DNA of 64,000 nt from Octopus vulgaris. Taxonomy: Eukaryota. The notes under the pieces were generated by a model that saw only the letters and a list, made by a program, of their open reading frames with translations, made no database searches and was not told the origin of the DNA. The DNA is taken from contig OX597816.1 in NCBI GenBank assembly GCA_951406725.2, positions 179,552,001 to 179,616,000 on the forward strand, in the 5' to 3' direction. The translations under genes and the position numbers were made by a program. This document shows, piece after piece, positions 4,752 to 58,941 of the stretch (positions within the stretch are counted from its first letter, which is position 1; each line of letters opens with the position of its first letter).

Positions 4752-5046
4752 AAGAAAATGGAGATATAGCATTAATATAATTTATTATCTGCAAAAATTC
4801 AACATATTCTCTTACAGCTGTTTCAATTAAGCCTAAAAGATTAAAATAGCAACAATTAAATCATTATATTAGGCAAATTCTCATCAGAGGGGTAGAAAAG
4901 AAATACCATTAGGTTATTAGGTGTTGTGTTTATATAATGATTTAATTGTTGCTATTTTAATCTTTTAGGCTTAGATGAAACAGCTGGAAGAAAATATGTT
5001 GAATTTTTGTGGATAAATTATATTAATGCTATATCTCCATTTTCTT
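4752..5046. repeat. Fold-back palindrome (arms ~4752-4869 and ~4932-5046), probable Penelope-like terminal repeat remnant
   Basis: aagaaaatggagatatagcattaatataattta...tcattatat is mirrored by atataatga...taaattatattaatgctatatctccattttctt. Contains a hammerhead fold on the - strand. Confidence 0.8.
4808..4892 (-). ncRNA. Minimal type I hammerhead ribozyme (C3-G8 core), degenerate stem I
   Basis: Minus strand reads cccct-CUGAUGA-g-aatt-t-gcctaa-[loop]-ttaggc-tt-aatt-GAAAC-AGCU-GUA-agaga. Stem III (ACAGCUGU) is palindromic; stem I is only partly paired. Confidence 0.6.
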
Positions 5047-5476
5047 ATAAAAATTCACATTTCCCTTAGTTTCCTTTTAGCTGTTAGTAAACTAGGGTGC
5101 AACAGTTTATGTTTATCTTTTTAATGCAGTATATTGTACAGATATCAGTAAATATAAATTCAATTCTGGCAGTTATTTTTTTTTTCTTTCACAGTATAGC
5201 TAAATAGAGTACTGTGTTTAAAATATTTAGACATCTGCATTTGGGTGTATGCGATTTCTCATTTTATTGGTTTTATTTATAAATGAATATAGTTTCTCAA
5301 CAATTTTATGTCTGTGTGTTATTCTAATCCAATTTATTTCTTGCAATCATAAATAAAATTGCTCTTGTGAATTTGCTTTATTTAAAATTTTTTTAATGAT
5401 TTGGTCAGAATATACTGTGAAATATTTTGCTTAAAAATTCTAATTTAGTACATTTTTAAAATTTTATTTTCAGTTT

Positions 5477-6515
5477 ATGATGCTCTTTGAAAGTGAAGTA
5501 GAGACAGCAACTGAAGTTTGTCCAGAATCGGCAGAGAAGGATGGACCACCAGTTGTTGAAAGATTCTGCGATGAAACTGAACGTTCACGGACAATGCTCA
5601 CAGGCTTTGCCAAATTGTATGAAAAAAATCTATTCACTGATGTCATATTATGTGCTGGACGTAAAGAATTTCCTTGCCATAAAAATGTTCTTGCTATTTC
5701 AAGCCCTTACTTTATGGCAATGTTTACCAATGACATGGCTGAAAAGAATCAAGAAAAGATCACTTTACGATCAATTGATTCTCAAACAGCTCAGTTGGTA
5801 TTGGACTACATTTACACTGGATCAGTTATGCTTTCTAAAGATACAGTTCAGGAGTTACTATCGGCAGCAAATATATTTCAGCTGGTGTCATTAAAGACAG
5901 GTTGTGCTTCATTTATGAAGAACCATGTGGATGTTAGCAACTGCATTGGTGTCTACTTTTTTGCTCTTGCTCATGGATGTATGGCGCTATCAAATGTTTC
6001 GAAAACTATTATTAATCAGGAATTCTCTCGTCTCTATCGTGAAAATGAATTTTTGAATCTTCCTGCTGACAAAGTTGTTGAAATTATTAGTGATGATAAC
6101 ATTTGCATAAGTCAGGAAGAAGTGGTTTATGAGGCATGTATGGCTTGGCTTAAGCATAACATAAATGAACGAGTAGGCTCTTTAGATGTCATCTTGAACC
6201 ATGTTCGCTTTGCCAATATCAACTCCTACTATTTCTGTGATAAAATTGATTCTGATCTGTCTCTTTTAAGTTATGAAAACGTCCAAAAGACTCTACACTC
6301 TGTTCGTCTGTATTATATGCTCAAAAACCGTCATTTAGAACTGGGGCTCAATCTGATGCCACGCAGAGGTATGGACTTTAAACGAGGTATAGTAATAATT
6401 GCCAATCCGTATGCAGAAGATCCACAGAGGAAGTATGGTGTGATGGAAATACTCTTTCCTAAAACTGGTAATGTTCGTTATGTATGTAAACTCCCTCAAG
6501 GTCTTTGCACACCAG
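5477..6515 (+). CDS. Kelch-like protein, coding exon 1: BTB/POZ and BACK domains plus start of the Kelch propeller
   Basis: ORF with BTB motifs (FTDVILCAG..FPCHKNVLAISSPYFMAMF; LDYIYTG) and BACK motifs (NCIGVYFFA; EEVVYEACMAWLKH; VRF). Acceptor AG at 5472-5473; donor CAG|GTAAG at 6515/6516, phase 1. Confidence 0.95.
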
Positions 6516-6892
6516 GTAAGTTCAGTATTGAAGTCTTTCATTGAAATTGTGAAATGTACTTATTATAAGAGATTCACTCTCAGTTTCTCTTGATTAAAAG
6601 TTATTTCATTTTCACCTGAAGAAAATTATGGTCCATATAATTTTATATTTCTTTGTATTTGTTGTATATTAAGAAATATTTCTATATCTCTTTGATATTT
6701 TTAAATCTAGGAAATAACTATTCAATTATGTCTAAAGAGTTTGGCAATCTTGACATATTAGGAAGGGTAGAGTGTTCCAACCTGAATTAAATTTTATCCA
6801 ATTTGCGATCCAATCTGTTTTTTTTTTTTTTTTTTTTTTTTCAATTGTAAGAGGCTGGATCTACTTTGTAGGTGAATGATAGGATTGTTTAA

Positions 6893-8980
6893 CCCCATGA
6901 CAATGGATTTCTTTTTTCATCAAGCAACTAGGTTGCATTGATGGTAATCATCTCAGCTGAGATAAGCAATCAGTGCAGGGCAACGATTCCTTGTATATTG
7001 ACATCAACTGCTTTAACCAGTTTACGGCAGTGATTCATTCGGTTGCCTGTGCGCAGCAATGGTAATCATGCTGATGGAGGTCAGCACTCAGTGCGAGATA
7101 ATTTTCAATGTATATTTATGTGAACTGCTTTAGTGCAAGTGCGGTTTATTGATCTCGACTCTATCCCTGTGCAGGACCCTCATGCAGTGTTGTTCCTGAA
7201 TGAGATCACTCAACAGCACAAGCAAGATCAACTTCATGTATCTACAATCACGTGAATTCAAAAATTGACTTTGGTTTGGTAGTTCAAAACAGGGTACCAC
7301 ATACAATGGTATATCATACTGTGAACAATGGTAGCTTGCACATCTCTTTGAAGCATTTGTCTTCTTGGTGGTGGGGGGAAAGTCGTGGAAAATGTCCACA
7401 TCCCTTCACCATGCAGTGAGGAGAGTCTGGTGTGGGGATGTCCACACATTCTGTACTTTGTCAGGTCTGATGTTTCTATCCTAAATGTCAGTCCATCTTC
7501 CACACCGTCAAGCATCTGCCAAATCAGATGTGAGTTCATGACAAACATCAACTATATACAAGAAAACTTTTTTTTACCATTTCACAAATTTCCTCCCCCA
7601 TTTGTGTGTTGTCACCAGCTGATCTGAGCGATTGACCCTGCCCATCCCTTCATTGTATGAAACATCTACACTTGGTTTCATTATGGCATTACCATCCACA
7701 TCTTGTTCCCTAGTGTCCTTCATGCTTGTAGAATGCATTGCAGATAACATGCAGACATTTTTCTTGTCGCACCACACTAGAGCGAGAATGCTACTCTCGG
7801 TGCATCGGGATGCTGTTTCCTCCTTTCAAAGTTTTATCTTGTGAAAATCAGACTGCATGTTTTTTCCTGTAGCTGTTGTCAGACAAGTTTTCATTCAGCA
7901 ACATCATGGCATCAATTGATGCTAGAGTAGATGCTGGAAGATTCAATCTATCCTGACCACTGTAGATTTTGTAATTCCACATCTACCCACAGGCTCTGCC
8001 AGCTGACTGGCATACTTTATAAACCTTGACTCCAATGCAGGCTTGTTGGGTTGGGTTGTATTGTTTGAATCAGGGCCTTCCCCTGAATTTCCACAAACTC
8101 TTGTCTGTACAAATGTACTGAGTTGGGGACATACACTGTTCTGAAATTTTCTGCTACTTTGCCAACTCTAGGACATATTTTGTGTAGCTTGTCATTCTGG
8201 TTCTCGCCTGAGTTGAAATGTAGATTTATTGATCACGTGGCATCGTTTCTGGAAAGAAGGGTGTCAACGTGGCTGGGTTCAGATTCCAATATGATGCCAG
8301 TGTTAGTTTCTTCACGTTGCCCATCAGTATCAGCAGGCAAACAGAACTTTGATCCCCCCCCCCTGTGCTTGGAAATCGATCATCGCCATAGCTGGGTCTG
8401 ACATGCTGGAGATGGTTTTCAGCAGTCATTCATTTCATCCACTTTATATTGGAACATTTCGTTCGTCAAAAACTTGTGGAGGATTTCCAATGGTGAACTT
8501 ACAGGTTCAAGGTTTTCCTTTATGGCAGGCATACCAGTAAATCCATGCAGTCAGATGAAATTGCTTCTTGTTCACCATATAATATTCTGTTGCCCAGGGC
8601 CGTTCCCTGCTACCCACCTGATTCATTAGAATATCATCATTGCTATGGAATCATCTGATTCTGAACTAGGAAAATATTCACTCTCTGAGTCGTCGTCTGA
8701 ACTGGAAGAAAGAACTAGCGAGGTGGTGGAGCTTGGTGCGATGACCATAAATTCGAAACAGGACGTGATGACAAAGTTGACATGACAACTGTAAATTTGA
8801 CAAAACAGGACATGACGACGAAGTTGATAGAGCTGGAGTTGCAGGACCAGCCTATCAGGTAGTAAATATTTACATGAAACATCTAATTGGCCCATCAGTT
8901 GGCAGGTGGATTGGTACTCATGTGACAGGTTCAGAAAGGATGACAAAGCATTTAGCATTCTTATGTCAAGTTTCATCAGT
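6893..8980 (-). mobile_element. Decayed piggyBac (PGBD4-like) transposon; transposase remnants ~7258-8748
   Basis: Fragments on -: acidic N-terminus SSSSDDDSESEYFPSSESDD; ICTDKSLWKFRG..FKQYNP; GVKVYKVCQS..WNYKIYSG; WCDKKNVCMLS..KPSV..YNEGMGRVNRSDQL..RKFVKW; Cys-rich C-terminus. TTAA-CCC end at 6889-6895; the other end is not visible. Many stops and frameshifts. Confidence 0.85.
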
Positions 8981-9277
8981 CAACTCTGCTTTCATGCCAC
9001 TAAATCTATAAAAAAACAGTTATTAGCAATATGCTGTAAATTTATTTGATCGTCTCTGCCCCAACTTACTTCCCTAAATATTCCTGAGCTTGTGCCAGTG
9101 TAAGAAATTGTTTTTGACAACTGAATTTCTGAATGTATTTTATTAAATTGTTAGTTTCTACTTTACTATGCATACAGGTAAATCATGTCTTTCACTAGTC
9201 TATTATTGTTTATAGTTACTAGTGCATGACCAGTTGTTTTATGATTGTTAATAACTATTACTTTGCTTCATGGAGAA

Positions 9278-9284
9278 ATATATA

Positions 9285-9331
<47 letters not shown>
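9278..9331. repeat. (TA)n microsatellite
   Basis: Direct reading; adjacent to the hammerhead-bearing element. Confidence 0.95.
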
Positions 9332-9333
<2 letters not shown>

Positions 9334-9442
9334 AAGTATCATTAGAGAACAAATCCCCATAAAATTCAATAAATCAGAATATAAATCCAACCATGTCATT
9401 GAGCATGAATAGTAAGTATTAAATATAATATTCTAAGTTGTC

Positions 9443-9536
9443 GACTACATGTGTTTCATGAGGTTGTATACTATGTTCCTGAGGCACACAGTCTTTTACA
9501 GAACCTCTCCTTATATACAACCCCAATCTTCAGGTC
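9443..9536 (-). ncRNA. Minimal type I hammerhead ribozyme (C3-G8 core) in a probable Penelope-like terminal repeat
   Basis: Minus strand reads gac-CUGAAGA-u-uggggttgtata-[loop]-tatacaacctca-u-GAAAC-ACAU-GUA-gtc. Stem II is 12 bp, stem I is gac/gtc, cleavage triplet GUA. Confidence 0.75.
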
Positions 9537-10004
9537 CACCTATCCCCTGTTTATAACTTTATCTGTCATTATATATTCCAACTTAAAAGTATGTCAAACT
9601 AAACAGATGTATAAATAAATTCCTAGTATGTCAAAACATATAAATGAGTAAATAAATTCATTGAACCCTGCAGTTTAAGCCATAATTAAGAATTAAGCCT
9701 AAAAGAATATATATAAATGAAAAATATATACGAATGTGGAAAAAATTTATACTAATAAGAAAATATAACATAAGAATAAAAATTTAAAACATCTATATCC
9801 AAATGAAGAGCATGATTAAGAGACGAATGGAAACTAATACGAATGACAAAAATTCTGGTGAATGTTATGCGTAAAATATGAATGAAGATATGCAAAGATA
9901 TGGAAAAGATAAAAATGAAAAAATTATATATACAGGAATTAATTTATAAATTAATATAATTAGAATTAATGTATTAAACTTAATTTAAAATGTAAAAGTC
10001 AAAA

Positions 10005-10430
10005 TCATCATCATTTAACGTTCGTTTTCCATGCTAGCATGGGTTGGACGGTTCAACTGGGGTCTGGGAAGCCAGGAGGTTGCACCAGGCCCAGTCTGAT
10101 CTGGCAGCGTTTCTACAGCTGGATGCCCCTCCTAACGCCAACCACTCCGAGAGTGTAGTGGGTGCTTTTTATGTGCCACCTGCACAGGTGCCAGACGAGG
10201 CTGGCAAACAGCCATGATCAAATGGTGCTTTTTACATGCCACCTGCATGGGGGCCAGACGAGGCTGGCAATGGCCACAATCGGATAGTGCTTTTTACGTG
10301 CCACCGGCACGGAGGCCAGTCGGGGCGGCGCTGGCAACGGCCATGTTCGGATGGTTCTCTTACTTGCCACCGGCACTGGTATCACAGCTACAATTTCCAT
10401 TGATGTTGAAAGATTTTGATTTTGATTCAA
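10005..10430 (-). mobile_element. RTE LINE 3' UTR fragment with (ATG)n tail and internal ~55-bp repeats
   Basis: catcatcatttaacgttcgttttccatgctagcatgggttgg and repeated gtgctttttaygtgccacc motifs, shared with the RTE at 28869-29909. Related fragments at ~4405-4605, 13590-13930, 22645-23020, 32160-32350 and 44555-44760. Confidence 0.75.
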
Positions 10431-10920
10431 AATGTAAAAGAATATTTTCCATCTACCCCTGGATACCATGGCACTAAATTCAGCTAGTTAGAATTTACAG
10501 TGCAATGGTCTGTGAAAATATTTATACTCATACCAACTGTTTCATTTAAACTATTATGTTATTAGCATATCACTGACAGTGGGACAGGAAATAAATTCAT
10601 TATGGGAAGAATTCTTCCTTTCTTTCATTTATATTCACCCACCCTCCTACCAGCACCCAACCATTGCTCCCCAACTCAAATAGTAAGTTAAATTTAAATA
10701 ATAGTATCTAATAGTAATTTCTAACAATTTGTTTATTTGCTTGAAGGTTAGATTTTATTAATTAGCCACTTCAGTTTGTGATTACATTTAATTTTTCTTT
10801 CATCCTGTACATTAAGTAGTTTAGTTTTTGCCCATAATATATCTCCATGAATTCATGGGTACACAACATAGTCTATTCCCAATTCTATACAATTTGGTTT
10901 TTCTTATTATCTCCCACTTA

Positions 10921-10958
<38 letters not shown>

Positions 10959-11619
10959 GAACGAATGAACGAACGAACGAACGCTTTTATAGATCAAAAT
11001 ACTTTTTTTTAACATCCTCTTTACATTACTGTCAAACACAGTCTCTTTAGAGTGAATTTAGTTTTTGAGTGATTGATGGATATAAAAATGACTAGTTAAA
11101 TAATCATTCAACTATTTTCCTGGGATGATTGAATGGAGGAAAGTGTCTGTGAATTGTCTAGTTTACTTGTGCACTGGGTGAGAGCTCAAGGTAAAAATCA
11201 GTGATAGATAGGTAGCTAGATACTTCTTTTAGAAGAAATATTACTACATTGGAAAAAAAAAATATGAATCTCAATTTTGGCTTTCTCTCCAACAGTGTTA
11301 TGTCTCTCAGTATATATGGATGTATGTACACAGATAAATGCATAAATTTCTTATTTTATATGATTGTCTTAATACATTATCTTTAACAATCCTGTTGAGA
11401 AACTAAGGTTAATGTAGTGATAGACAGGATGTGATGTTTGGAAATGTTAGAGGATATAGGCTTCTATATAATAGATGGCCTTTTCTTGAATGTGCTCTAC
11501 CACCTTCACTCAACATTCCTGTTCCTCAAATTAGAAAGCAATTCTGTTGCTGGGATTTGAGTTTACTGTTTCTTTGTTTCTGAGATTTTTAATTTGAAGA
11601 AACCTAAAAATAACCTTTC

Positions 11620-11825
11620 TATATATGCACAAGTCCTGAAATTAGAGGGATGGGGTCTTGTTGATTACATTGACCCCACTGGTCAACTGGTACTTATTTT
11701 GACTCCGAAAGGATGAAAGGCAAAGTCAACCTCAGTGGAATTTGAACTCAGAATGTAAAGACAAACAAAATGCCACTAAGCATTTTGTCTGGTGTGCTAA
11801 CAATTCTGCTAACTCTCCATCTTAA
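11620..11825 (-). mobile_element. tRNA-derived SINE, family B
   Basis: Core gaaaggatgaaaggcaaagtcaacctcagtggaatttgaactcagaat. Repeated at ~15843-16825, 19110-19300, 21870-22085, 48505-48720, 49130-49330 and 49425-49612. Confidence 0.8.
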
Positions 11826-12639
11826 ATGTGAAAATATGACTAAAACCATTTGCAAACATAACACTTGTATATGTTATATGTAGCTATAAAGGAAATGAAA
11901 ATAAAGGTCAAGGGTTAGTGTGTAATCATTAAATGAATTTATATACATATACTTACTGTATGTATAATGTATTTTTTAAGTTTTGGTTTAACAACTAACT
12001 AGGACAAGAATCTATTTAAATTGTTAGATTTTGGTCTGGTTGTACATGGGGAGTACAAATGAGTACAATTTTGTCTTCCTCACAGTGCAGTTCTCTTCAA
12101 CATAGCTCACAATTCAATTGTTTTGCTTTCTTTTAGAAACATACATTATAGATATATTGTTTCTTGCTATATTTAACTGATTTTATTAAATTGTTGAGTT
12201 TTTTAAGTGGTTTCTGCTACATTTCTTGTAAATTTACTCTAAGAATGTCTGATCTTTATTTTGTTTTTTATCTGTTTAATTAGCTGAGAAATTTAAACAA
12301 AGCAATTTTTATAATCTTTGCTGGGGCTATGACATGATTTAGATATTGAGAAGCAATATCCCCTCTTAAACATGGATATTCTGTTGGAACAAAATTTTAC
12401 TGCAGTGGTTACCATGAGAGAAACTCTCACATTTTTTTTGTGCAAAATGCCAAAGCCGATTTAAGATGAAAGCCAATACGAGTTTCTTTCATTGTAACTA
12501 CTGCAGTAAAGTTTGTACTAATAGACCATCTATGTTTAAGTGGGGGTAAATATTACCTCTCGGTATTAATAATACCTTTGTTTTTAATATATATGGTTTA
12601 GATATTAAATTGAATTTTAGGACCCCTTATAATTTGAGT

Positions 12640-12950
12640 GAAGGCATCTGGCTTAGTGGTTAGATAATTGGCTCATGATGGTAAGGTCATGAGTTTGATT
12701 CCCAGTGGCACACTGTATCCTTGAGCAAGATACTTTATTTCACATTGCTCCAGTCCTCTCTGCTGGCAAAAATAAGTTGTACTTGTAATTCAAAGGGCCA
12801 GCCTTGTCACATTGTGTCACACTGAATCTCCGAGAACTACACTAAGGGTATGCATGTCTGTGGAGTGCTCAGCCACTTGCATGTGAATTTCACAAGTAGG
12901 CTTTTGCTGATTGTATCAATTGGATCTTCGTCATTGTAACTGAAGTCCCA
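12640..12950 (+). mobile_element. tRNA-derived SINE, family C
   Basis: A-box TGGCTTAGTGG, B-box GAGTTTGATTCC, body ttgagcaagatactttatttcac. Related copies at ~14485-14765 and ~57990-58235. Confidence 0.75.
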
Positions 12951-15247: not shown

Positions 15248-15406
15248 TAGGCACTGGCATGGCTGTGTGGTAAGAAGTTTACTTTTTGACCGTATGGTTT
15301 TCAGGTTCAGTCCCATTGCATGGCACCTTGGGCAAGTGTCTTCTATAGCTTCTGGCCAACCAAAACCTTGAGTAGATTTGGTAGACAGAAACTGAAAGGA
15401 GCCTGT

Positions 15407-15449
<43 letters not shown>

Positions 15450-23196: not shown

Positions 23197-25072
23197 TAGC
23201 TGTCTTTTTGGTACAGCTCATTTTGTACTGTCTGTTTTCTGCATAAACTCCTAAAATCTTTGTAATTTGTCCTTGTAATGCCTCCTTATCTACTGTCCTT
23301 GTGACAAATTGTTACTATTATCATAATAGTAATCCTTTCTATTATAGGCACAAGTCTTGAAATTTTGGGGGAGGGGCCAAGTCAATTGCATCACCCCCTC
23401 CATCCCCCAGTGTTTCACTGGTACTTAATTTATCAACCCCGAAAGTATGAAAGGCAAAATACCATGAAGCATTTTGTCCAGTTTACTCCCAATTCTGCCA
23501 GCTTGCCACTAAGTGAGCTTAGGGCTATTTATGTCCATCTGTATGTTCCTGAGTTTAAATAAGTCCCAATTGAGATCTGGGCTCAATATAATCAATTTGC
23601 CTTGTGCCAAAATTTGAAATCATTATTAGTGGATGATGGAAAAAATCCTTTGTATTTCTGCTACCACTCCACATTCTGAGTTCAACTCCCATCAAGGTCA
23701 GCCAGAGGGATAGACGAAATTGATCTTGATAGAACAAAGTACCTGTGAAGTGCTGAGTTGATGTAATTTTCTAACTCCCTTTTCTCAATTACTGGCCTTG
23801 TGCCTAAATTAGAATTATCTTTATTGTACATTTGCTTTTATAAGTAATTTTCAAAATTTTCAGCATTTCTAAACTTAGCTTGTAAGAATTAACATCAATG
23901 AAATGGAAAATTCCCAAGTTGTACAGATCATATCATAAACTTTGGTTAGCTAGTTTCTTTTGTAAAGGAGAGTAAAAAAAAAAAAAAAAAAAAAAAATAT
24001 ATATATTATACAGCAAATTTATTTATAGTAAAAAATTGTAGTTTATCTACCATAAAAGTTGATTCATATTTTTATGGCTATATTCAGTATTGACTGAATG
24101 GTCAACTGCTTTGTCACCTGTTAAGTCATCAATTTAATTTTGAAATATTTTTCTCTTCATCCATCACTAAATTTTCAATGTCTATTCTTTATAATTTAAC
24201 TTTAGAAGGAATTTCTATCAGACTATTCATTTATTTTTAGCTTCTCATTTTTTAGCAAAAGGTTTTATAGGCTAGCAAATGGTTGGAATGTTTAAAAAAA
24301 TTTCTTCTTGTATTTTTGTTTAATTTCAAGTTACATTTTGCAGGGTTTGAAAGAATATTAATGATGTTCAATGTTTGGCCTTCATTGGCACATTGTCTTC
24401 ATGTTGGGTCAGTATACAACAAACAAGCCAACAAGCATTTTACTTGAGAAAATGAATGTAGATGTTATTAAGTGCAGTTGCATACAGCAGACGGCTAAGA
24501 AATTTGACAAATTTTGAAAAGTTACTTGGCAGTGAATGGGTTGACCAGTCACTATTGCAAATGGTATTTATACACCATTTGCAATACTGACTGGTCAACA
24601 GCTGTTGTATGTATTTCGAGCATACTTGAAATAAGAGCACGTGCTTTTGTTCAAGTTGGTGTTTTTGTTTTTTTAATAACCAGTTTCCTCAAATATGCTT
24701 AAATCAGACCAAACGATGAGATCACTTGTAACATTTTAGCTTGTTTCCATTTGTGGATGGGATTTATATTAGATTTCTTAGTTTCTTAGGCTTAAAATTC
24801 ATGAAACTTATGAAAACCAAGCCTGTTTTACTGGCTGTGGTATCTTGATTGTGCTGTTATTTCTTGCACAGATACTCAACCTTCCCTGTGTCATGTACTC
24901 TTTCCACCATGGTTCAGAATGTTGTTGCTCACATTCAAGGTTGTCTGAATGAAAAAGGTGCATTCCAAATAATACGCCTATACTATTAAATCTTAGTTCT
25001 ATATTTAAGAGATGAGGAATTATGTACATTATTTACATTGGACGGATATTTGTCTTCATCTTGTTTGTTGTT

Positions 25073-25118
25073 AACACAATGTTTCAGCTGATACACCCTC
25101 CAGCCTTCATCAGGTGTC
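25073..25118 (-). ncRNA. Minimal type I hammerhead ribozyme (C3-G8), slightly decayed
   Basis: Minus strand reads gacac-CUGAUGA-a-ggctgg-agggtgta-tcagct-GAAAC-AUU-gtgtt. Comparison with the other arm suggests an ancestral GAAACGUU. Confidence 0.7.
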
Positions 25119-25324
25119 TTGGGGTAATTTTGAACCTGAGTTCTCATTCCAAAGGTATTTTTCGATATTAGTTTGGTCACTGCTTGGAATCGAACTCGGA
25201 ATCTTGAGGTTAGTAGCCCGCGTTCTTATCCCCAAGATTCCGAGTTTGATTCCAAGCAGACATGAATAATAATGACATTGAAAAATACCTTAGGAATGAG
25301 AACCCAGGTTTGAAATTTCCCCAA

Positions 25325-25367
25325 GACACCTGATGAAGGCTGGAGGGTATATCGGCCAAAACGTGTT
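25325..25367 (+). ncRNA. Minimal type I hammerhead ribozyme, probably inactivated (GAAA to AAAA plus a small deletion)
   Basis: gacac-CTGATGA-a-ggctgg-agggtata-tcggcc-aaaac-gtgtt. Confidence 0.6.
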
Positions 25368-25678
25368 AACAACAAACAAGATGAGGACAAATATCCGTCC
25401 AATGTAAATAATGTAAATATTTAATCAGTTACTTGGATTAATTTTATAATTTATAGCTATAGAAAATGTTGGTTGATTTTTTTTTTTTTTCCACATCATA
25501 ATTTCTTCAGACTAAAGTTACTGAAGCATATTTCAATAAAGAGAATCTATAGAATGCTAAAATATTGAGATTTATTTTAACCTGATGGTCACATAGTCAC
25601 TGAGAAATCATTTTTTTACTTCATGAATTGAAAAGCGCTAGAAAGGACAATTTATAATTTGAATTGTTTGAATACAAA

Positions 25679-27227
25679 CAACAATGTACATAGTTGTTTA
25701 GTAGGTACTATAGCTGAATCCAAGCAACAATGAACATAGTTGTTTAGTAGGTACTATAGCTGAATCCAAGCAACAATGAACATAGTTGTTTAGTAGGTAC
25801 TATAGCTGAATCCAAGCAACAATGAACATAGTTGTTTAGTAGGTACTATAGCTGAATCCAAGCAACAATGAACATAGTTGTTTAGTAGGTACTATAGCTG
25901 AATCCAAGTAACAATGAACATAGTTGTTTAGTAGGTACTATAGCTGAATCCAAGCAACAATGTACATAGTTGTTTAGTAGGTACTATAGCTGAATCCAAG
26001 CAACAATGAACAGTTGTTTAGTAGGTACTATAGCTGAATCCAAGCAACAATGAACAGTTGTTTAGTAGGTACTATAGTTGAATCCAAGCAACAATGAACA
26101 TAGTTGTTTAGTAGGTACTATAGTTGAATCCAAGCAACAATGAACATAGTTGTTTAGTAGGTACTATAGCTGAATCCAAGCAACAATGAACATAGTTGTT
26201 TAGTAGGTACTATAGCTGAATCCAAGCAACAATGTACATAGTTGTTTAGTAGGTACTATAGCTGAATCCAAGCAACAATGTACATAGTTGTTTAGTAGGT
26301 ACTATAGCTGAATCCAAGCAACAATGAACATAGTTGTTTAGTAGGTACTATAGCTGAATCCAAGCAACAATGAACATAGTTGTTTAGTAGGTACTATAGC
26401 TGAATCCAAGCAACAATGTACATAGTTGTTTAGTAGGTACTATAGCTGAATCCAAGCAACAATGTACATAGTTGTTTAGTAGGTACTATAGCTGAATCCA
26501 AGCAACAATGAACATAGTTGTTTAGTAGGTACTATAGCTGAATCCAAGCAACAATGAACATAGTTGTTTAGTAGGTACTATAGCTGAATCCAAGCAACAA
26601 TGTACATAGTTGTTTAGTAGGTACTATAGCTGAATCCAAGCAACAATGAACAGTTGTTTAGTAGGTACTATAGCTGAATCCAAGCAACAATGAACATAGT
26701 TGTTTAGTAGGTACTATAGCTGAATCCAAGCAACAATGTACATAGTTGTTTAGTAGGTACTATAGCTGAATCCAAGCAACAATGAACATAGTTGTTTAGT
26801 AGGTACTATAGCTGAATCCAAGCAACAATGTACATAGTTGTTTAGTAGGTACTATAGCTGAATCCAAGCAACAATGAACATAGTTGTTTAGTAGGTACTA
26901 TAGCTGAATCCAAGCAACAATGTACATAGTTGTTTAGTAGGTACTATAGCTGAATCCAAGCAACAATGAACATAGTTGTTTAGTAGGTACTATAGCTGAA
27001 TCCAAGCAACAATGAACATAGTTGTTTAGTAGGTACTATAGCTGAATCCAAGCAACAATGAACATAGTTGTTTAGTAGGTACTATAGCTGAATCCAAGCA
27101 ACAATGTACATAGTTGTTTAGTAGGTACTATAGCTGAATCCAAGCAACAATGAACATAGTTGTTTAGTAGGTACTATAGCTGAATCCAAGCAACAATGTA
27201 CATAGTTGTTTAGTAGGTACTATAGCT
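25679..27227. repeat. 46-bp minisatellite, 33 full units plus 1 partial, highly homogeneous
   Basis: Unit caacaatg(a/t)acatagttgtttagtaggtactatagctgaatccaag. Three units have a 2-nt deletion. No unique spacers. Confidence 0.97.
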
Positions 27228-46432: not shown

Positions 46433-46438
46433 AATAAA
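46433..46438 (+). promoter_or_regulatory. Candidate distal polyadenylation signal (AATAAA; ATTAAA also at 46369)
   Basis: Lies at the end of a repeat-poor, U-rich stretch and is followed by T-rich sequence. Other AATAAA hexamers occur upstream. Confidence 0.3.
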
Positions 46439-49400: not shown

Positions 49401-49819
49401 TACTGCTACTAGTGCCCCTTATATAAAGTGGCAAGCTGAGCAAAATGCTTTGTGGCTTTCTGCCTGTCTTTACATTCTGAGTTCAAATTCTGCTGAGGGC
49501 TTTCATTCTTCTGGGGGTTGATAAAATAAGTACCAGTTGAGTACTGGGGCTTATGTAATTGACTTAGCCCTCCACTAAAATTGCTGGCCTTGTGTCAAAA
49601 TTTGAAATCAATATTACTCTTTATAGTTCCCTTTGGTGTTGTGTAATAAAACTTTTATATACAAAGGATCAGATGTTAAGCTAAATGGGGCTGGAAGGGA
49701 ATTAAAATTTACAGGAGGGGGTAACTTGAGGTGAGAAATTGATTGGGAGACGTTTTTGGGGCGCTACAGTGGTAGCTTGGTGTGAAAATGGGGATTTTAT
49801 TGATTTTTGGGGACACTTG

Positions 49820-52460
49820 GATGTCTGTAATCGGTGCACATATTGTGCTGGGTCAAGAAAATCTTGTGATGAAACAGGTTCGATCATCTGCCCAGGTAAG
49901 GTGAGTGCTGTGCCATAGACGAGTTCAGCCGGAGTATATCCAACTTCCTCCTTAACCGTGGATCTAATACCGAGGGAGATGTTCCAGCCAGTGAGAACTG
50001 TCTGAAGATGCTTTTATAGATGCCTTGAGTTGGCGGTGAAAGCGTTCGACCATGCCATTTGCTTCAGGGTAGTAAGCCGTAGTGCGGGTGTGTTTACACC
50101 CGAGGAGATGAGTCAGCTCGGTGAAGAGGTGGGAATCGAACTGACGTCCTCTGTCGGTGGTGATTGTTGCGGGTGTGCCAAAACGCGAAACCCATTGTGA
50201 TATCAGCGTTTTGGCGACCGTTTCTGCCGATGTATCAGATAAGGGCCAGGCTTTGGCCCATCGCGAAAAACGATCTATGCAGGTGAGCAAATGTGTATAA
50301 TTCTGCGAAGGTGGCAGGGGTCCGACGATATCAATGTGAACGTGCTGAAATCGTGCGTCGGGTTGCGAAAATGAACCGATTGTGCCGGTGGATTTTCGCT
50401 TTTTGGCACGCGACACAGCACTTGGTCCATTCTCTGATATCCTTGTTGATACTGGTCCACACAAAACGGGTCGATATCAGCTTTTGAGTGGAGCGAATAA
50501 CAGGATGTGACAGAGAATGCAGAGCGGAGAAAACTTCTCGACGATGTTTCTGTGGTACATAAGGGCGTTGGTGACCAGTGGAGATATCACACCAAATATG
50601 GGCTGTGGACGATGGTAGCGGAACATGCTGAAATTTCAGAAATGACGAATTCCGGAGCTTTAGAAGTTCTTCGTCATTCTCCTGGTCAGCTGCTATACGT
50701 GCCAGATCAATTGTAGACGTGGTGTGGATAGCATTGATCTGCGTGCGTGAAAGTGCATCGGCTGCTAAGCTGGTCGTCCCTTTGATGTGGCGTATATCCG
50801 TCGTATACTGCGATATGAAGTCGAGGTGGCAGATTTCTCTCGGCGAGTGGCTTGTGGTCGGTGTATACCGCAAAATTGGTACCTTCTAGCATGTGACGGA
50901 AATGCTTAACGGCCAGGTATGCCGCCAATAATTACCGACTGAATGTGCTGTATTTGGTTTCCGCGGGTTTTAACCGCTTAGAAAAGAAGGACAACGGTTG
51001 CCATATGCCGTCAACAAGCTGCTGTAGTACACCTCCAACTCCGGAATCGGATGCATCAAGGAGTAATCATCGTGGGGCGTCTGGTTTTGGATAAACCAAC
51101 ATGGTAGCGTTGGATAACGCTTTTTTCTGGGCAGCGAAAGAAGCGAGTTGCTCTTCGGTCAGTGCAATATCCGTATTTTTGCAAGTTCACTGACGTAGCA
51201 AATCCGTGAGCGGTTGCGCTATCTCAGCGAGGTGGGGCACGAACCGTCGATAGAAATTCGCTAGACCGAGATATTCCCTTAATTTGCGGAGAGATGTGGG
51301 TGGTGGAAAATCCACGATGGCCTTGACTTTCTTGGGAAGGGGACGAATTCCATCGTTATCGACGATGTGCCCGAGAAAATGAAGGGAAGCAACTCCGAAC
51401 AAACACTTACTGGGGTTGATTACGACACCGTATTTGCGGAGGCGTTCGAATAGCAGGTGAAGGTGTTGGTTATGTTCTTCGTCCGAGTTACTGGCCACGA
51501 GTATGTCGTCTATGTAGGCATAGACGAAAGGCAAACCTCTAGTCACCATGTCGATAAACCTTTGGAATGTCTGTGCCGCGTTGCGTAAACTGAAAGGCAT
51601 ACGCAGGAATTCAAACATTCCGAAAGGTGTAGTAACTGTTGTCTTCGAGATGTCCGCAGGTTCCACTGGGATTTGGTTGTATGCTCGCACAAGATCGATT
51701 TTTGGAAAAGATGCGAGCTCCATACAGCGAGCTTGAAAAATCTTGAAGAAATGGGATCGGGTAGGCATCACTGATAGTACTTTTATTCAGCGATCGATAA
51801 TCGCCGCAAACCCGCCAATCGGTCGATGATTTTTTGGGATGCAGTGTATCGGCGAGGACCAGTTGCTGCTGGAAGGGCGGATGATTCCGAGGTCGAGCAT
51901 GTGCTGGAATTCCCGCTTGACGGCCTGGAAACGATCAGGTGGTAACCTTCTGGGTCTTGCAGCAACAGGTGGACCGCTGGTTTTGATGTGGTGGGTAACG
52001 TCATGCTTGATCGGCTGGTTGTGGAATACTGGTCGAGCGACGTCCAGATATTCCTTCAGGATAGAACTGTGACGAGTCGTTGTTGTAAGCAATATAGTTG
52101 GGCTGACTGTGGCCATACAAGCGGCTATACCGCGCACAGTAAGCTTGGTGGTGCTGTCGACAAGTCGTCTGTTCTTAATGTCCACCAGGAGACCGAAATG
52201 ATGCAGGAAATCGGTTCCTAAGATAGGGGTCGGCAGTTTAGCGACGACGAATGCCCACTGAAAGGTGCGGCGTAGTCCTAAGTTCAGTGTTAGGGACTGT
52301 TCACCGTAGGTTGGGATGGGTGAATGGTTGACTGCCTGAAGACAGACTGGTGTCTCTTTTCTTTTTCCAGAAATGTTGGAGACAGGGATGATGCTGACTT
52401 CCGTACTGATGTCAACCAGGAAACGCGTGCCTGTTACCCGATCGCAAAAGAAACAGGTAA
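49820..52460 (-). mobile_element. Ty3/Gypsy pol fragment (protease-RT-RNase H-integrase), frameshifted; CsRN1-like
   Basis: FLVDISTEVSIIP (protease site degraded); [26 protein letters not shown] and YIDD (RT); LDASDSGVGGVLQQ and YTDHKPL (RNase H); [19 protein letters not shown] and [12 protein letters not shown] (integrase). Confidence 0.93.
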
Positions 52461-52879
52461 AGAAATTACACATAGTGGTTGTAGCAATTTTAAGCAAACA
52501 ACTTGGCTTGTTAGTTTGGAAACAGGCATCAATGTATCTGTGGCTTTCAATTGGCTAAAATTACCCAAAATTTTCAAACTTTTACCCAAAATTACCCAAA
52601 CTACTTCAAATAGCTTTTAAGCTATTAACAATTAGAACAAAACTTTAAAAATTGAAAACTGTGACATCACCAGAAAAGATCAATTTCAATTCATTTTCCT
52701 TTTTTTCACCAAACGAAACCACACAGCAAATTACTTAAAAAAGGTTTGGTTCAAGGTGTAAGAATTAACACTTCCTTCTCCAAGCCTAGATTCGAAACCG
52801 AATCCAAGAATTCTCGGTCGTCCAAACCACGACGATTAGCAGGCGCGAAAAAAGGTTTTCTTTGTCCTGTCAAAAATTG

Positions 52880-53328
52880 ATCGATCATCTCCCTTTGACC
52901 TGCGACCTCATCATGTCAGGCGAAGTTCAACTGGACAGGGCTGACCTATTTAGGTACAAACTCTGCTGCAGTATGTCTGTCTTTCTAGCTGCCACAAATA
53001 TTATAAAACCAGGTGAAACAGGAGAGGAGACAGACAGACGAGATAGATCTATCTACGACCCAAGTTATTGGCAGACCGCAGAGGCAGAGAGAAATGTTCG
53101 AAGTGCCGATAGACTACTGTTTCGAATGAAACACGAACACACGCACACACACAAACATATTCATTCCTAATATGTACTCTGTATTTCTAGCAACTCGTAG
53201 CAGTTGCCTACATTTTGTATGTAGTGTACCAATAAGAAATCAAACCCTGTAAATAAATTCCTTTCAATCATGAATCGGTTTACGTATTCATTTACATACA
53301 CACTTAACCACTACATTTGGTGACCCCG
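52880..53328 (+). mobile_element. LTR (5' boundary uncertain) ending ...CACTACA, followed by a tRNA-Trp primer-binding site
   Basis: TATAAAA at ~53002, AATAAA at 53252, CA end at 53315. TGGTGACCCCG (53318-53328) is complementary to the tRNA-Trp 3' end CGGGGUCACCA. Confidence 0.8.
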
Positions 53329-54169
53329 TCAACGAATTGCGGCCTTCCCTTGAACCAGCTTCATCAACCGCGTTGAAGAATCACAGCTTGCACATCACCC
53401 GGCAACGAAACAACTGAGAATTCCGGCGAACACAATGGCCCTCTATAGTACCTAAAGTCTGGACTTTAGTCTTAGCTAAATATAATATATTGATTATTTA
53501 TATGAACTGAACTATTACTGAAGTATAATGAATTACTCTTTTACTCTTTTAGTTGTTTCAATCATTTGACTGCGGCCATGCTGGAGCACCGCCTTTAGTC
53601 GAGCAACTCGACCCCGGAACTTATTCTTTTGTAAGCTTATTCTATCGGTCTCTTTTGCCGAACCGCTAAGTGTTTATTTTTTGTAATTTTTTGCAAAAAA
53701 AATTTCATTGAGGATATTTCCTTTTTAAATTGTTTACATGCTTGTTTCAATGTTTGTTTTGCCTTATTTATTTTATCAGACAGGAAAACTGGTGAGTCTT
53801 TTCAGTTGCTATCACATTTTTGGACACTTTAGAATTAAGTGAAAATTTTCAAACTTGTTACATTATTGTAATTTTTCTCACCGAGTCTAATTTTGTTATT
53901 CACTTTTCCAGAAAAATTTTCGAAAATTGTTCACTGAAAATATGTTACTAATTGATTAACTACAGGTCACCCACTATTCGAACTGACCCTAAACGCCAAA
54001 CTAAACCCTAATTCTAACTCTAAATCTCAACTCTAATCTTTGACTCAAACCCTGACTCTAACCCTAGTGTATCTCAAACTTTCCTGTTTGAATTTTTGCT
54101 ACAAAAAATGCATTAGTTGTTTATATGAGCTGAACTACATTTGTATAATGTAATTTTTTATTTGTAATT

Positions 54170-54204
<35 letters not shown>

Positions 54205-54937
54205 ATTCATTGAGGATCTTCCCTTTTTATATTGCCAACTTCCAAATCTCGTTTTCTGACTGGATAAAAACAATGAAACTTTAAACTTCTGTAACATTTT
54301 TCTGAAATTTTTCTCGAGCGAATGAATAACAAGATCAGATGCACACGAATTTGAAAGTTTTTACTAAATTTTAAGATTTGAAAAACTGTGACAGCAACAG
54401 AAAAGATCCAATTACAGTAATACAAGGTTCTATTTCTATGGTAGAATTGTTAGCCCCTTGCCCTACGAAAGAGACAAGGATTTGATGAAAGATTAGCCAA
54501 CAATTGCTAATGTCAAAAAAGATCTCTGATAATGAATATTTATAGTTATGAGTGTTTATTAGTAACGCATGAAATCGCTGATGTACTTATTTTTGTTTTC
54601 ACGTGTTTTTGGTAAAGAATTTGGTAGTTTCTGTTTTTTGCTTTTTTTAAATAATAGCTGCAAGGGACATAATGCATGGTAAGGGAGGTAACTTCGTTCT
54701 TTAAACAGGTTTTAATTCTCTCTGAATATTTAGAAATTCTTGCAGACATAATGCCAAAACTTTCGATTATTTTCTATTTCTTCGTATTTCTCGCCCTATG
54801 ATTGACAAGCTACATGAAATGACATATTTCCTATTTCCGTGACAAGCATTTTGCCTCAACTTCTTGGAAGACAGTCGTCACAATTTCTATTTTCTTGTCT
54901 ACATCGATCGCTTCCTTTGCCTTCGAATAGTCACGCA

Positions 54938-54938
<1 letters not shown>

Positions 54939-55018
<80 letters not shown>

Positions 55019-55050
55019 TGTGTGTGTGTGTGTCTGTGTGTGTGTCTGTG
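54939..55050. repeat. (TG)n microsatellite
   Basis: Direct reading. Confidence 0.97.
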
Positions 55051-55249
55051 TATGCGCACGCGTGCGTATATGCGCCTGTATGTGTGTGGGTGTAATAATG
55101 CGAACGCTATTCATAGATTTATGTAAGATGGCGATGTGTGTGTGTGTAGGGGGGGGGTCTGCAGATGGCATGAATATATTTTTTAAAAATATACGCAATT
55201 TTCCTCAATATTTCTTTTATGTCGTCTGAATACTATTAAGAGAAGAAAT

Positions 55250-55672
55250 GGATTTTTTCGGTTTGAACGGCATAATTTCTAGGTAACATAATTTCTAGGT
55301 AACTAAAAAATTAAAAACTTCGTATACTGGTAGAATGTGTTTATAAAACATCTTTTTCTCTTGGCTTTATTGAGAAAATTCTATAGTTTGTAAGATATTT
55401 GTTGTTTTTTTTTCTTCAGTTTCTGCAATTTCAACCAATCACTGTTTGAGGTATAAAAAAACATTCTGTGCCGTATGAATATGTCCCTCGTTTAAGAAAC
55501 AGATTGGGTTTATTTACATTTCTGAAGAAAAAAAAGATACCCTCCCTCACTAACCCTAACCCTAACCCTAAAACAGAATGAAATGCAATAGATCGACACT
55601 AGGGTCATAATTATGGGTGACAATTTCACATGACACCGCTAGAAAAAACTGCCGTTCAAACCGAATAGATCC
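55250..55672. mobile_element. MITE with 23-bp TIRs and internal telomeric (TAACCC)3
   Basis: ggattttttcggtttgaacggca vs tgccgttcaaaccgaatagatcc (21/23 match); taaccctaaccctaacccta at 55551-55570. Confidence 0.75.
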
Positions 55673-55732
55673 GAAAAAATATAATTGAGTACATTTTACT
55701 TCGTTAGTACTACAGTCTTGCAATCGAGCGAC

Positions 55733-55825
55733 CAAGCAAGCAAGCAACCAACCAACCAGCCAACCAACCAACCAACCAACCAACCAACCAGCCAACCAAC
55801 CAACCAACCAACCAACCAACCAACA

Positions 55826-55856
<31 letters not shown>

Positions 55857-56009
55857 TACTCAGTTAATCAATCAATTTCTGTGTTTCCAACCAGTGATTT
55901 TGAAAGTGATATATCTATGTGTGTGTGTATATATATGTATGCATGTATGTATGTATGTATGTATGTATGTATGTATGTATGTATGTATGTATGTATGTAT
56001 GTATGTATG

Positions 56010-56040
<31 letters not shown>

Positions 56041-56152
56041 TGTACTTATGTATGTATGTAAGTATGTATGTATGTATGTAATGTACTTATGTATGTATGT
56101 ATGTAAGTATGTATGTATGTATGTAATGTACTTATGTATGTATGTATGTATA
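55733..56152. repeat. Compound tetranucleotide microsatellites (CAAG/CAAC/CAAT)n and (TATG)n
   Basis: Direct reading. Confidence 0.95.
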
Positions 56153-56352
56153 TAAATGAAAAAAGGCAGGCAACAAGTTGCTTAGCCACATACCTGTTGC
56201 CTGCCTTTCTTATTTATATACAAAATATATATTGAACTTTTATAGAAGTTCCTACCGTTAATGGTTATATTTACATGCCGAAATCTACCAGTAAATAATT
56301 GTTGGTTTTTAAAAAACCATTAAAGCTACAGTTTACTCTTATTATATTACTG

Positions 56353-56394
<42 letters not shown>

Positions 56395-56448
56395 TATATA
56401 CTAGCCGTACCTTTCTAAATCACTGATTTTATGTATATATATATATGT

Positions 56449-56848
56449 AGGCGCAGGAGTGGCTGTGTGGTAAGTAGCTTGTTTACCAACCACATGGTTC
56501 CGGGTTTAGTTCCACTGCGTGGCACCTTGGGCAAGTGTCTTCTACTATAGCCTCGGGCCGACCAAAGCCCTGTGAGTGGATTTGGTAGACGGAAACTGAA
56601 AGAAGCCCGTCGTATATATGTATATATATATGAGTGTGTGTGTGTGTCTGTGTTTGTCCCCCTAGCATTGCTTGACAACCGATGCTGGTGTGTTTATGTC
56701 CCCGTTACTTAGCAGTTCGGCAAAAGAGACTGATAGAATAAGTACTGGGCTTACAAAAGAATAAGTCCCGGGATCGAATTGCTCGATTAAAGGCGGTGCT
56801 CCAGCATGGCCGCAGTCAAATGACTGAAACAAGTAAAAGAGTAAAAGA

Positions 56849-56850
<2 letters not shown>
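56449..56850 (+). mobile_element. Full-length, CpG-intact tRNA-derived SINE, family A
   Basis: AGGCGCAGGAGTGGCTGTGTGGTAAG head, internal (TA)/(TG) tract, tail gaaacaagtaaaagagtaaaagag. Confidence 0.9.
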
Positions 56851-56888
<38 letters not shown>

Positions 56889-57178
56889 AGTATATATATA
56901 TGTATATGTATTTTTATATCTTGTTATATTTATTTAGTTATATCTCATTATAATGATTGTAATTGTTGTACTGTATTAATGTCTAATCTTAATGCTCTTG
57001 TGTAGTGTTTTAATAAAGTATATGATTCGGTATTATCTGATAGTTGATAAGTGATTTAGATATATTTCTCCATTTTCTCATTTTGTATATATATATACAA
57101 TTGCAGCGTGGAAGGTGTTTATAAGCCATTTAAGAAACACACAAAAGCCGTTCGTTTCACTCCAACATTTAAGTTTAA

Positions 57179-57228
57179 TTTGTCAAAATATTTTCGTCGC
57201 TAAAATCCGCGACCTGTTCACTGACAAA
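57179..57228 (-). ncRNA. Minimal type I hammerhead, G3-C8 variant (mirror copy)
   Basis: Exact reverse complement of 57270-57319. Confidence 0.7.
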
Positions 57229-57269
57229 GCTGCATCTCAGTGCTGCACGGACTTTGATGCAGCACGGAC

Positions 57270-57319
57270 TTTGTCAGTGAACAGGTCGCGGATTTTAGCG
57301 ACGAAAATATTTTGACAAA
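57270..57319 (+). ncRNA. Minimal type I hammerhead, G3-C8 variant
   Basis: tttgtca-GUGAACA-g-gtcgc-ggatttta-gcgac-GAA-AAUAUU-U-tgacaaa. Perfect 7-bp stem I, 5-bp stem II, palindromic stem III. Confidence 0.7.
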
Positions 57320-57459
57320 TTAAACTTAAATGTTGGAGTGAATCGAACGGCTTTTGTGTGTTTCTTAAATGTCTTATAAACACCTTCCACGCTGCAATTG
57401 TTTTCGTTTCAGCACACGATCTCAGATCAAATTACTTGCTATGCGAGTACATCTCCGTA

Positions 57460-57521
<62 letters not shown>

Positions 57522-58236
57522 TATATAAAAATACAAAATGGGACAAGAATGCAAAACATTAAATAGACGATACAAAAAACGGACGGGTCATTCGAAGCCT
57601 CTAATCTTCAGTCAAGAACCGGATCATCCTCGCAATTTCGGCTGATTAATCTTGAGATTGCTTCGATCTGGCCAGCCCCAAGGAAAAACTAAGCTACGAG
57701 CATTAGATTTCTTGAAAAAAGGATCGAATGTATACGAAACAAAGACAGAAAAACGGACGATGTTACACGAATATAAATACAAAAAACAAAATGTAATACG
57801 AATATAAATACAAAAAACAATAATAATAATAATAATAATAACAACAGGACAAAAACAACGGTCATCTTTCGACTTTAGACAGTTCAACTTAGCTGGCGTA
57901 TTTGAAAAATAATGCCTTACGGCAGACGAAATTATCAGTGTTGTTATGGCGCTGGTCAGAAGCCGAAAGGCTATATATATACATATACACTTACGACCGT
58001 GAGGTTCTGAGTTCGAATCCCGAACCGAGCTGCGTGTTGTGTTCTTCAGCAAGACACTTTATTTCACGTCGCTCAGCTGTAGAAGTGAGTTGCGACGTCA
58101 TTGGTGCCAAGCTGTATCGGCCCCTTTGCCTTATCCCTTGGATAACAATGGTGGCCGGTATTCCATAAACAACCTTTCCCAGCCTTGTGCCTTTCTAGTT
58201 GCAATCCCATGGTCATTCGTGACCGAGGGGAGGCTC

Positions 58237-58238
<2 letters not shown>

Positions 58239-58330
<92 letters not shown>

Positions 58331-58591
58331 GTATATATATATGTATATATATATGTGTATATATATGTATATATATATGTGTATATATATGTGTATATAT
58401 GTATATATATGTGTATATATATATGTGTATATATGTATATATATATGTGTATATGTATATATGTATATATATATGTATATATGTATATATATATGAATGT
58501 ATATATATATGTGTATATATATATATATATGTATATGTATATATGTGTAGATGTATATGTATATATATATGTGTATATATATGTGTATATA

Positions 58592-58657
<66 letters not shown>
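58239..58657. repeat. Long (TA)n/(TG) compound microsatellite
   Basis: Direct reading; source of the spurious YIYI ORFs. Confidence 0.97.
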
Positions 58658-58662
<5 letters not shown>

Positions 58663-58750
58663 AATCCAAACGGGAAAACAAAAAAACAACAACACGTGGA
58701 ACAATTACAGTATTATTATTAATAGGCGCTCAGGAAATATGGAAGCAGGA

Positions 58751-58813
<63 letters not shown>

Positions 58814-58895
58814 ACAAAGTGGAGTTGTAAGGTACCGCACGAATGGAATTATATATGAAAGAAGGTTTGAAAATGCAATTTTAAAAGATGTTTAT

Positions 58896-58941
58896 TTACT
58901 TTACTGGTTTCACTTTTTTAGAAAAAGATTGTCAAAAGTAA
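58896..58941 (-). ncRNA. Minimal type I hammerhead, U3-A8 variant
   Basis: Minus strand reads ttactt-UUGACAA-u-cttttt-cta-aaaaag-u-GAAAC-CA-GUA-aagtaa. Perfect 6-bp stems I and II. Confidence 0.6.

Follow-up and report, generated by a model that had tools for sequence, protein, structure and literature searches.

What are the five hammerhead-like motifs that lie in a 64,000-nucleotide stretch of the Octopus vulgaris genome (GCA_951406725.2, contig OX597816.1, positions 179,552,001 to 179,616,000, forward strand; hereafter the window), and why does the pair between core positions 3 and 8 differ from one to the next? A preliminary description of the window had proposed one architecture for all five and three versions of this pair (C-G, G-C and U-A). 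The five loci are real, and their coordinates and cores were borne out (Table 1), the common architecture holding at the level of the repeat families. Our reading, to which we assign a probability of roughly 0.7, is that they are minimal type I hammerheads in the terminal repeats of Penelope-like elements (PLEs), mostly surviving as truncated end-pieces. Their 3-8 pair would be family-specific but always complementary. They are predicted to cut weakly, likely as dimers or with the aid of a protein, and the genomic copies likely derive from uncut RNA.

Hammerhead motifs and their repeat families

The intact G3-C8 motif at 57270 combines a stem I of 7 bp, the core GUGAACA (57277-57283), an extra G, a stem II of 5 bp and GAAA with a stem III made of a 6-nt A/U palindrome, and the predicted cut falls after 57312. 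The terminal repeat copy surrounding it ends right after the likely start codon of the element (57441), followed by an A-run and (TA)n. Under a strict descriptor with positions 3, 7 and 8 free, only the two G3-C8 copies match in the window, and these two palindromic matches compare with none in 20 dinucleotide shuffles. The remaining window copies fail this descriptor owing to individual decay changes, most of them at CpG. The U3-A8 copy at 58897 carries CCAG in stem III, where 31/38 family rows have the palindrome CCGG; the 9443 copy reads CACATG for the family majority CACGTG; and the 25073 copy has CA in place of CG. Its neighbor at 25325 has lost G12 (AAAA for GAAA) together with 3 nt. In the 4808 copy, stem I is weak, and a partial inverted copy of this family (4932-5045, plus strand) lacks the core.

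Each locus proved to belong to a large family, with 1581 (G3-C8), 1544 (U3-A8), 137 (9443), 381 (4808) and 2342 (25073) candidates at first look; these counts are lower bounds, and 40 candidates were scored and 30 fetched per family. Three families are C3-G8, one is U3-A8 and one G3-C8, the core GUGAACA being present in 43/45 rows of the G3-C8 family and UUGACAA in 37/38 rows of the U3-A8 family. As read from these alignments, the hammerhead architecture holds at the family level. A short palindromic stem III of 4-8 nt is found in all five families, although broken in several window copies, and the pattern CUGANGA...GAAA...UH is matched by three families outright and by the other two except for a compensated 3-8 swap. 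The expectation that a CUGANGA search would miss some of these cores was therefore correct for the GUGAACA and UUGACAA families. Both the extra base after A9 and the G10.1-C11.1 pair occur in the G3-C8 and 25073 families, while the closing pair differs or is ambiguous in the U3-A8, 9443 and 4808 families; the 4808 family is ambiguous for the extra base as well. At least 12 further C3-G8 families of minimal hammerheads, differing in their palindromes and bearing long loops on stem II, were also seen (Table 1).

All five families share a fixed 3' end roughly 90-240 nt past the motif and ragged 5' ends. Inverted partial partners accompany 14 (G3-C8), 8 (U3-A8), 7 (9443), 9 (4808) and 14 (25073) of the 30 loci per family, whereas a second copy in direct orientation was found at only 2/150 loci. 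At the 3' end, (TA)5 occurs in 25, 28, 17, 13 and 0 of 30 loci, in the same order, compared with a background of 13.5%. The claim that such repeats often sit as fold-back pairs in (TA)n tracts thus stood for the fold-back pairs in every family; the (TA)n tracts turned out to be family-specific and are missing from the 25073 family.

Complementarity of the 3-8 pair

A relaxed descriptor with positions 3 and 8 free was run on 80 evenly spaced 10-kb stretches (800 kb). It gave 27 matches compared with a mean of 2.2 in 20 shuffles. The very common 25073 family has 18 matches in the 800 kb. The preliminary description had named similar rates in shuffled sequence as grounds for rejection, and the real rate lies well above them. 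A relaxed pattern does yield false matches in AT-rich repetitive DNA, namely 8 in a single satellite and the 2.2 per 800 kb of shuffled sequence, and an Rfam scan of the window returned 41 matches at E<=5, none of them a hammerhead. However, each window locus belongs to a large family that fits the hammerhead better than the window copy itself, at the position expected for PLE hammerheads. The family alignments and the element context therefore refute chance matching, which we accord next to no probability.

Watson-Crick pairs occupy positions 3 and 8 in 16/27 real matches and in 11/44 matches in shuffles (Fisher p=0.006). When the 8 matches from one AT-rich satellite (in L316; L-numbers denote separate genome stretches fetched outside the window) are dropped, 16/19 are paired compared with the same 11/44 (Fisher p=2e-5), these 19 comprising 12 C-G, 4 U-A, 1 U-G and 2 A-G combinations. 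Over 1.98 Mb, 12 families occur at two loci or more, and in every one of them most copies are paired (9 C-G, 2 U-A and 1 G-C; permutation p=0.0015), with the limit that the families and matches in these counts are not phylogenetically independent. No A3-U8 family was seen in the 1.98 Mb. The alignments thus indicate that the 3-8 pair varies among families (C-G, U-A, G-C) yet stays complementary, in line with the preliminary description. The known role of this pair lies within the active core. Since a swap needs two matched changes, we infer long-term selection for the folded core.

Another U3-A8 family (stem I of 6 bp, stem II of 4 bp), with 4 matches in the 800 kb, includes a 362-nt direct tandem without an open reading frame (ORF) and is retrozyme-like.

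Parent elements

Extension of the G3-C8 family led to an open frame of 1025 codons encoding a reverse transcriptase (RT) and a GIY-YIG endonuclease (L151). The C-terminus of this frame matches GIY-YIG in Pfam (E=1.8e-5), while the frame gave no match to Pfam RVT_1 and none in a single-sequence search of the PDB. A profile built from 60 relatives matched a solved reverse transcriptase (E=2.8e-6), and the YxDD motif and the linker cysteines are invariant among these relatives. The RT part matches 22 places in the genome at 93-100%. A sister protein of this element shows 98% identity to a protein that one source labels Octopus vulgaris. The hammerhead lies about 1.0 kb 3' of the ORF stop, and in L191 and L192 the ORF is flanked on both sides by directly oriented hammerhead repeats, the end of the repeat running into the ORF start. 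This repeat-ORF-repeat layout is the terminal repeat (pLTR) arrangement of PLEs. The G3-C8 element thereby shows the marks of endonuclease-bearing (EN+) PLEs, namely a single ORF with RT and C-terminal GIY-YIG, pLTRs, and 5' truncation with an inverted partner. Reading of the translation places a CX2-5CxxC linker before GIY-YIG, by which the linker is of the Neptune/Nematis type. Compared with the young copy, an older G3-C8 subfamily of 3025 candidates shows differences at 5 loop II columns and at none in the core and stems. The G3-C8 core also appears in the loose-end consensus of contigs from runs of other organisms; contigs spanning the repeat-ORF junction came from runs only guessed to be RNA and were not used as evidence.

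The other families join coding sequence to different extents. In the U3-A8 family, decayed RT and endonuclease sequence lies upstream in sense in 4/6 longer stretches fetched (L225-L228), and at the amino acid level these remnants share about 42-59% identity with a PLE frame of 838 codons (in L154) for which Pfam gave an RVT_1 match. The L154 element (L154:2779-266, minus strand; also L237), whose 838-codon frame comprises RT and endonuclease, itself bears a 3' U3-A8 motif with a stem II of 2 bp and a stem I of 7 bp. Its stem III palindrome is the same as in the U3-A8 family, while stems I and II are unrelated; from this comparison U3-A8 appears lineage-wide. The 25073 family has a Penelope/Poseidon-like RT and endonuclease remnant without the cysteine linker upstream in 1/3 longer stretches (L229). 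Upstream, the 9443 family joins a remnant resembling an endonuclease; in the window, too, the copy reaches the end of this decayed frame at about 10630-10878. The 9443 remnant was matched to a frame without a Pfam hit, which makes for a weaker PLE link than in the U3-A8 and 25073 families. The 9443 element of the window is interrupted at 10006-10428 by another repeat, which contains internal tandem units of 62 bp, and a 152-bp tandem duplication lies within the 3' untranslated region (UTR) of the U3-A8 copy (58976-59281). As a further observation, (TA)n targeting tracks the cysteine linker, with 25/30 and 28/30 loci in the two families that have it and 0/30 in the linker-less 25073 family.

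The preliminary description had regarded the repeats as non-autonomous families and proposed to extend them in search of RT and GIY-YIG ORFs. This extension found an open frame for G3-C8 and decayed PLE coding sequence for U3-A8, 25073 and 9443, leaving only the 4808 family unlinked. Because four families join PLE coding sequence, they are mainly truncated PLE ends, and the designation as non-autonomous does not hold for them. In its stronger form, this idea would have retrozyme-like families, or families resembling short interspersed elements, spread through cleaved circular RNA while borrowing a PLE enzyme. It could account for the predominance of short copies without an ORF, for the uniform unit of about 205 nt seen in many G3-C8 copies and for the 4808 family, and retrozymes do derive from PLE termini according to the portion of a preprint covered (bioRxiv 10.64898/2026.07.22.740005). 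It is nevertheless quite improbable, given that 4/5 families run 5' into PLE coding sequence, that directly repeated copies are so rare and that the ends of the unit do not lie at the cut site. Metazoan non-LTR (long terminal repeat) retrozymes consist of ORF-less head-to-tail repeats of 170-400 nt, while here ORFs lie upstream in four families.

Copy boundaries and the template RNA

If cleavage produced the RNA that is inserted, new copies should begin at the cut site. To avoid the bias of a boundary-anchored query, 39 G3-C8 copies were selected solely on the sequence that follows the cut site. Not one of them starts within 4 nt of this site, so this origin of new copies was rejected, while 12/39 start 12-17 nt before stem I. 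Inversion junctions or internal deletions account for about half of the boundaries from -9 to +37, and misaligned simple repeats make up 2-3 of the 4 rows located before -25. The genomic copy ends carry no sign of cleavage, and from these boundaries the G3-C8 copies were likely made from uncut RNA.

The common 5' boundary (equivalent to window 57240-57256; in long copies L152:7845-7866) fits a pyrimidine-purine start site often preceded by an untemplated G; the same sequence also fits a branch point and 3' splice site. In short copies, G stands directly before the boundary motif in 48/59, and among those ending in AG a further G is present in 20/29, where long copies carry T or C. The frequent untemplated G makes a capped start likely. 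In the 3' UTR, inspection by eye showed no splice donor to account for the AGAG commonly found ahead of the boundary, for which reason the cap reading is preferred, though unproven.

From these boundaries, transcription would start about 15 nt before stem I. By analogy with an anole PLE, the protein of the element may nick AT-rich DNA and begin reverse transcription at a point just within the start of the ORF, and copying back to the 5' end of the RNA would then yield the abundant solo repeats of about 205 nt. Cleavage may process or limit a fraction of the tandem transcripts while not producing the insertion template. Genuine dimers would join either two RNA molecules or the two direct repeats within a tandem element. 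For the fold-back pair of the window, folding predicts one hairpin of about -240 kcal/mol in which both motifs are buried. Fold-back pairs are therefore better seen as insertion scars, and we rejected them as dimer partners because the second copy is antisense; it would mask the ribozyme.

Is the G3-C8 hammerhead still active?

Besides the lack of phylogenetic independence in the 3-8 counts, several points weigh against our preferred reading. The L151 frame lacks an N-terminal start, its first residues deriving from an inversion junction, and no fully intact single copy of the G3-C8 ORF was seen among the stretches examined. In the 4808 family, shared sequence was followed for about 1.1 kb upstream without a protein match and no ORF was found, and four of the six core-bearing window copies are degraded or weak. 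Taken alone, the absence of core differences between the two G3-C8 subfamilies does not reach significance, and C8 is variable in 10/30 old-subfamily copies (6 T, 3 G and 1 A, partly through query bias). The stem III palindrome of the G3-C8 family has a duplex energy of -0.2 kcal/mol compared with -8.3 for the U3-A8 family, and co-folding of two G3-C8 copies gave no hammerhead dimer. Whatever activity there is would therefore be low or protein-dependent. The absence of copies starting at the cut site speaks against a simple cutting role, and because the boundary also resembles a 3' splice site, its reading as a start site is not unique.

The same direction is taken by the nearest sister element, which has a frame of 1312 codons at 54% identity and accounts for 69 of the 91 matches listed in the RT search. 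At the same position it carries a motif with C3-G8 but with C9 in 16/16 motif rows (overlapping loci included), and its stem III is non-palindromic. In public contigs, three runs have A9 as a minority letter, at about 11-16% of the summed depth, and a fourth has it at about half. The clade can therefore amplify with a core expected to be crippled. The clade thus tolerates changes at otherwise fixed core positions. This would explain how the double swap passed through an inactive step, but it also keeps alive the possibility that the G3-C8 motif no longer cuts, is retained as a folded RNA or promoter signal, and was swapped when catalysis had become dispensable. Such a vestigial motif agrees with the copy boundaries, the near-zero stem III energy, the C9 sister and the C8 variants, as well as with the report that hammerhead mutants leave insertion in vitro unaffected (PMC11167929). 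On the other hand, the matched double change and the 12/12 paired families are hard to obtain without selection on the 3-8 pair, two subfamilies retain all of UGA, A9, GAAA and UH, and an engineered swap is partly active (PMC11167929). We consider loss of activity unlikely, though deserving of serious weight.

The reading of the motifs as PLE hammerheads, which we prefer, can be carried further only tentatively. Judged from sequence comparisons, a recently active PLE lineage may possess a natural, working G3-C8 hammerhead new to print, its sister may amplify with A9C, and both may copy from uncut RNA. The ribozyme might then be a slow, protein-gated switch whose core is retuned by lineage and which acts elsewhere than on the insertion template. 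This extended scenario is possible but, in our view, rather doubtful.

Comparison with known systems

The proposal that these are the minimal type I hammerheads of Penelope-like termini agrees with both the family alignments and the element context. In the portions covered of Cervera and De la Pena 2014 (PMC4209133), the minimal hammerheads of PLEs do not cleave as monomers and cleave weakly as dimers. They resemble the octopus motifs in their type I topology, short stem I, extra base after A9 and tiny palindromic stem III, and also in their solo truncated copies, close inverted pairs and U3-A8 cores, the latter already published there for Schistosoma mansoni. In the text and supplementary alignment rows covered, the cores are C-G, U-A and one U-G, with no G-C, whereas here a young family whose ORF is open has G3-C8 fixed. 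Long stem II insertions or the lack of G10.1-C11.1 also set some octopus families apart. The same source places the end of an intron at helix I in the Penelope of D. virilis, which makes a splice acceptor at the common 5' boundary the alternative to a capped start. Small stem III hammerheads of PLEs, described by Lunse, Weinberg and Breaker as cited in the part of PMC6765202 covered, likewise have a short stem III, are associated with PLEs and cleave as dimers.

The anole element PAc (Poseidon, Anolis; PMC11167929) offers the closest functional parallel: its pLTR hammerhead lies near the ORF start, with the end just inside the ORF, AT-rich targets and an uncut template. Its cleavage needs protein, its reverse transcription begins within the start of the ORF, and insertion mainly uses uncut RNA; with this use of uncut RNA the copy boundaries of the G3-C8 family agree. 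In contrast, the C3G/G8C change is an engineered rescue in PAc, where it partly restores cleavage, and G3-C8 is natural here. The octopus element further differs by its cysteine linker of Neptune/Nematis type and by a motif located about 165 nt before the start codon. With the Neptune and Nematis EN+ PLEs, as far as PMC8557442 (Craig et al. 2021) was covered, it shares the ORF with RT and C-terminal GIY-YIG, the CX2-5CxxC linker, the cysteine/histidine motif of the endonuclease, pLTRs, an inverted truncated partner and the (TA)n bias; hammerhead core variants are not described in that part, and the clade is judged here from features.

Natural core variants in the part covered of Perreault et al. 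2011 (PMC3088659) similarly include 3-8 covariation to U3-A8, and neither a natural G3-C8 nor an A9C is named there. In the covered parts of PMC3884650, PMC8495972, PMC10085705, PMC7229834 and PMC6765202, G3-C8 occurs only as an engineered mutant. A natural G3-C8 was not found in the literature searched, where it is only engineered, the main survey (Lunse 2017) and several supplements lying outside this coverage; a natural A9C was not found in the literature searched either. The kind of system and U3-A8 are therefore already known, and what appears from the sequences to be new is a natural G3-C8 core that has become fixed in a young element whose RT-endonuclease frame is open, along with the boundary evidence for uncut RNA and the A9C sister.

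Other features of the window

A 366-codon frame at 5444-6544 (plus strand) resembles an exon of a BTB-BACK (Kelch-like) host gene, which we take it to be from its motifs, and introns of this gene, or sequence beside them, probably contain the nearby hammerhead copies. The reverse strand contains, at 49964-52554, what is presumably a broken LTR-retrotransposon pol remnant with protease, RT and integrase-like pieces and, at 62490-63008, a fragment that we assume to be related to a Helitron helicase. A 46-bp satellite (25669-27227; 34 copies, 97% matches) starts about 250 nt after the 25325 copy.

Table 1. Hammerhead-bearing features in the window and related motifs in separately fetched genome stretches (L-numbers).
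Feature	Position	Strand	Remarks
G3-C8 minimal hammerhead, intact	57270..57319	+	fold prediction forms stems I and II
Whole short copy of G3-C8 terminal repeat (pLTR)	57256..57460	+	start is the common 5' boundary of the family
Inverted partial G3-C8 repeat, fold-back partner	57097..57229	-	second intact core (57221); predicted hairpin
U3-A8 family copy, 5'-truncated	58809..59826	-	long 3' UTR, (TA)n end
U3-A8 hammerhead, core UUGACAA	58897-58940	-	palindrome of stem III broken in window copy
Inverted pair, very common C3-G8 family	25002..25422	both	both copies decayed
C3-G8 hammerheads, core CUGAUGA	25073-25118; 25325-25367	-; +	
C3-G8 element, 5'-truncated	9285..10878	-	hammerhead 9443-9536, core CUGAAGA, long stem II
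C3-G8 family copy	4628..5045		hammerhead 4809-4891 on -, core CUGAUGA, weak stem I
Sister PLE, hammerhead-shaped motifs	L186:6886-6935; L187:6720-6765	+; +	ORF L186:2442-6377; many near-identical copies
Retrozyme-like U3-A8 family	L311:9029 and 8667; L306:96; L314:8363; related L167:3219	-; +; -; +	4 matches/800 kb
Further C3-G8 families	L003, L062, L065, L266, L267, L275, L307, L319, L323, L331, L337, L382, L384		

Implications for Penelope-like elements

For the role of the hammerhead in PLEs, this genome offers a natural series of canonical, U3-A8, G3-C8 and A9C cores, carried by young elements whose reading frames are open. Here, the copy boundaries argue against cleavage as the maker of the insertion template. 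Since both CUGANGA descriptors and Rfam miss these families, counts of animal hammerheads are underestimates. The natural G3-C8 family is an evolutionary counterpart to the classic rescue mutant and, as such, supports selection on the active-site pair.

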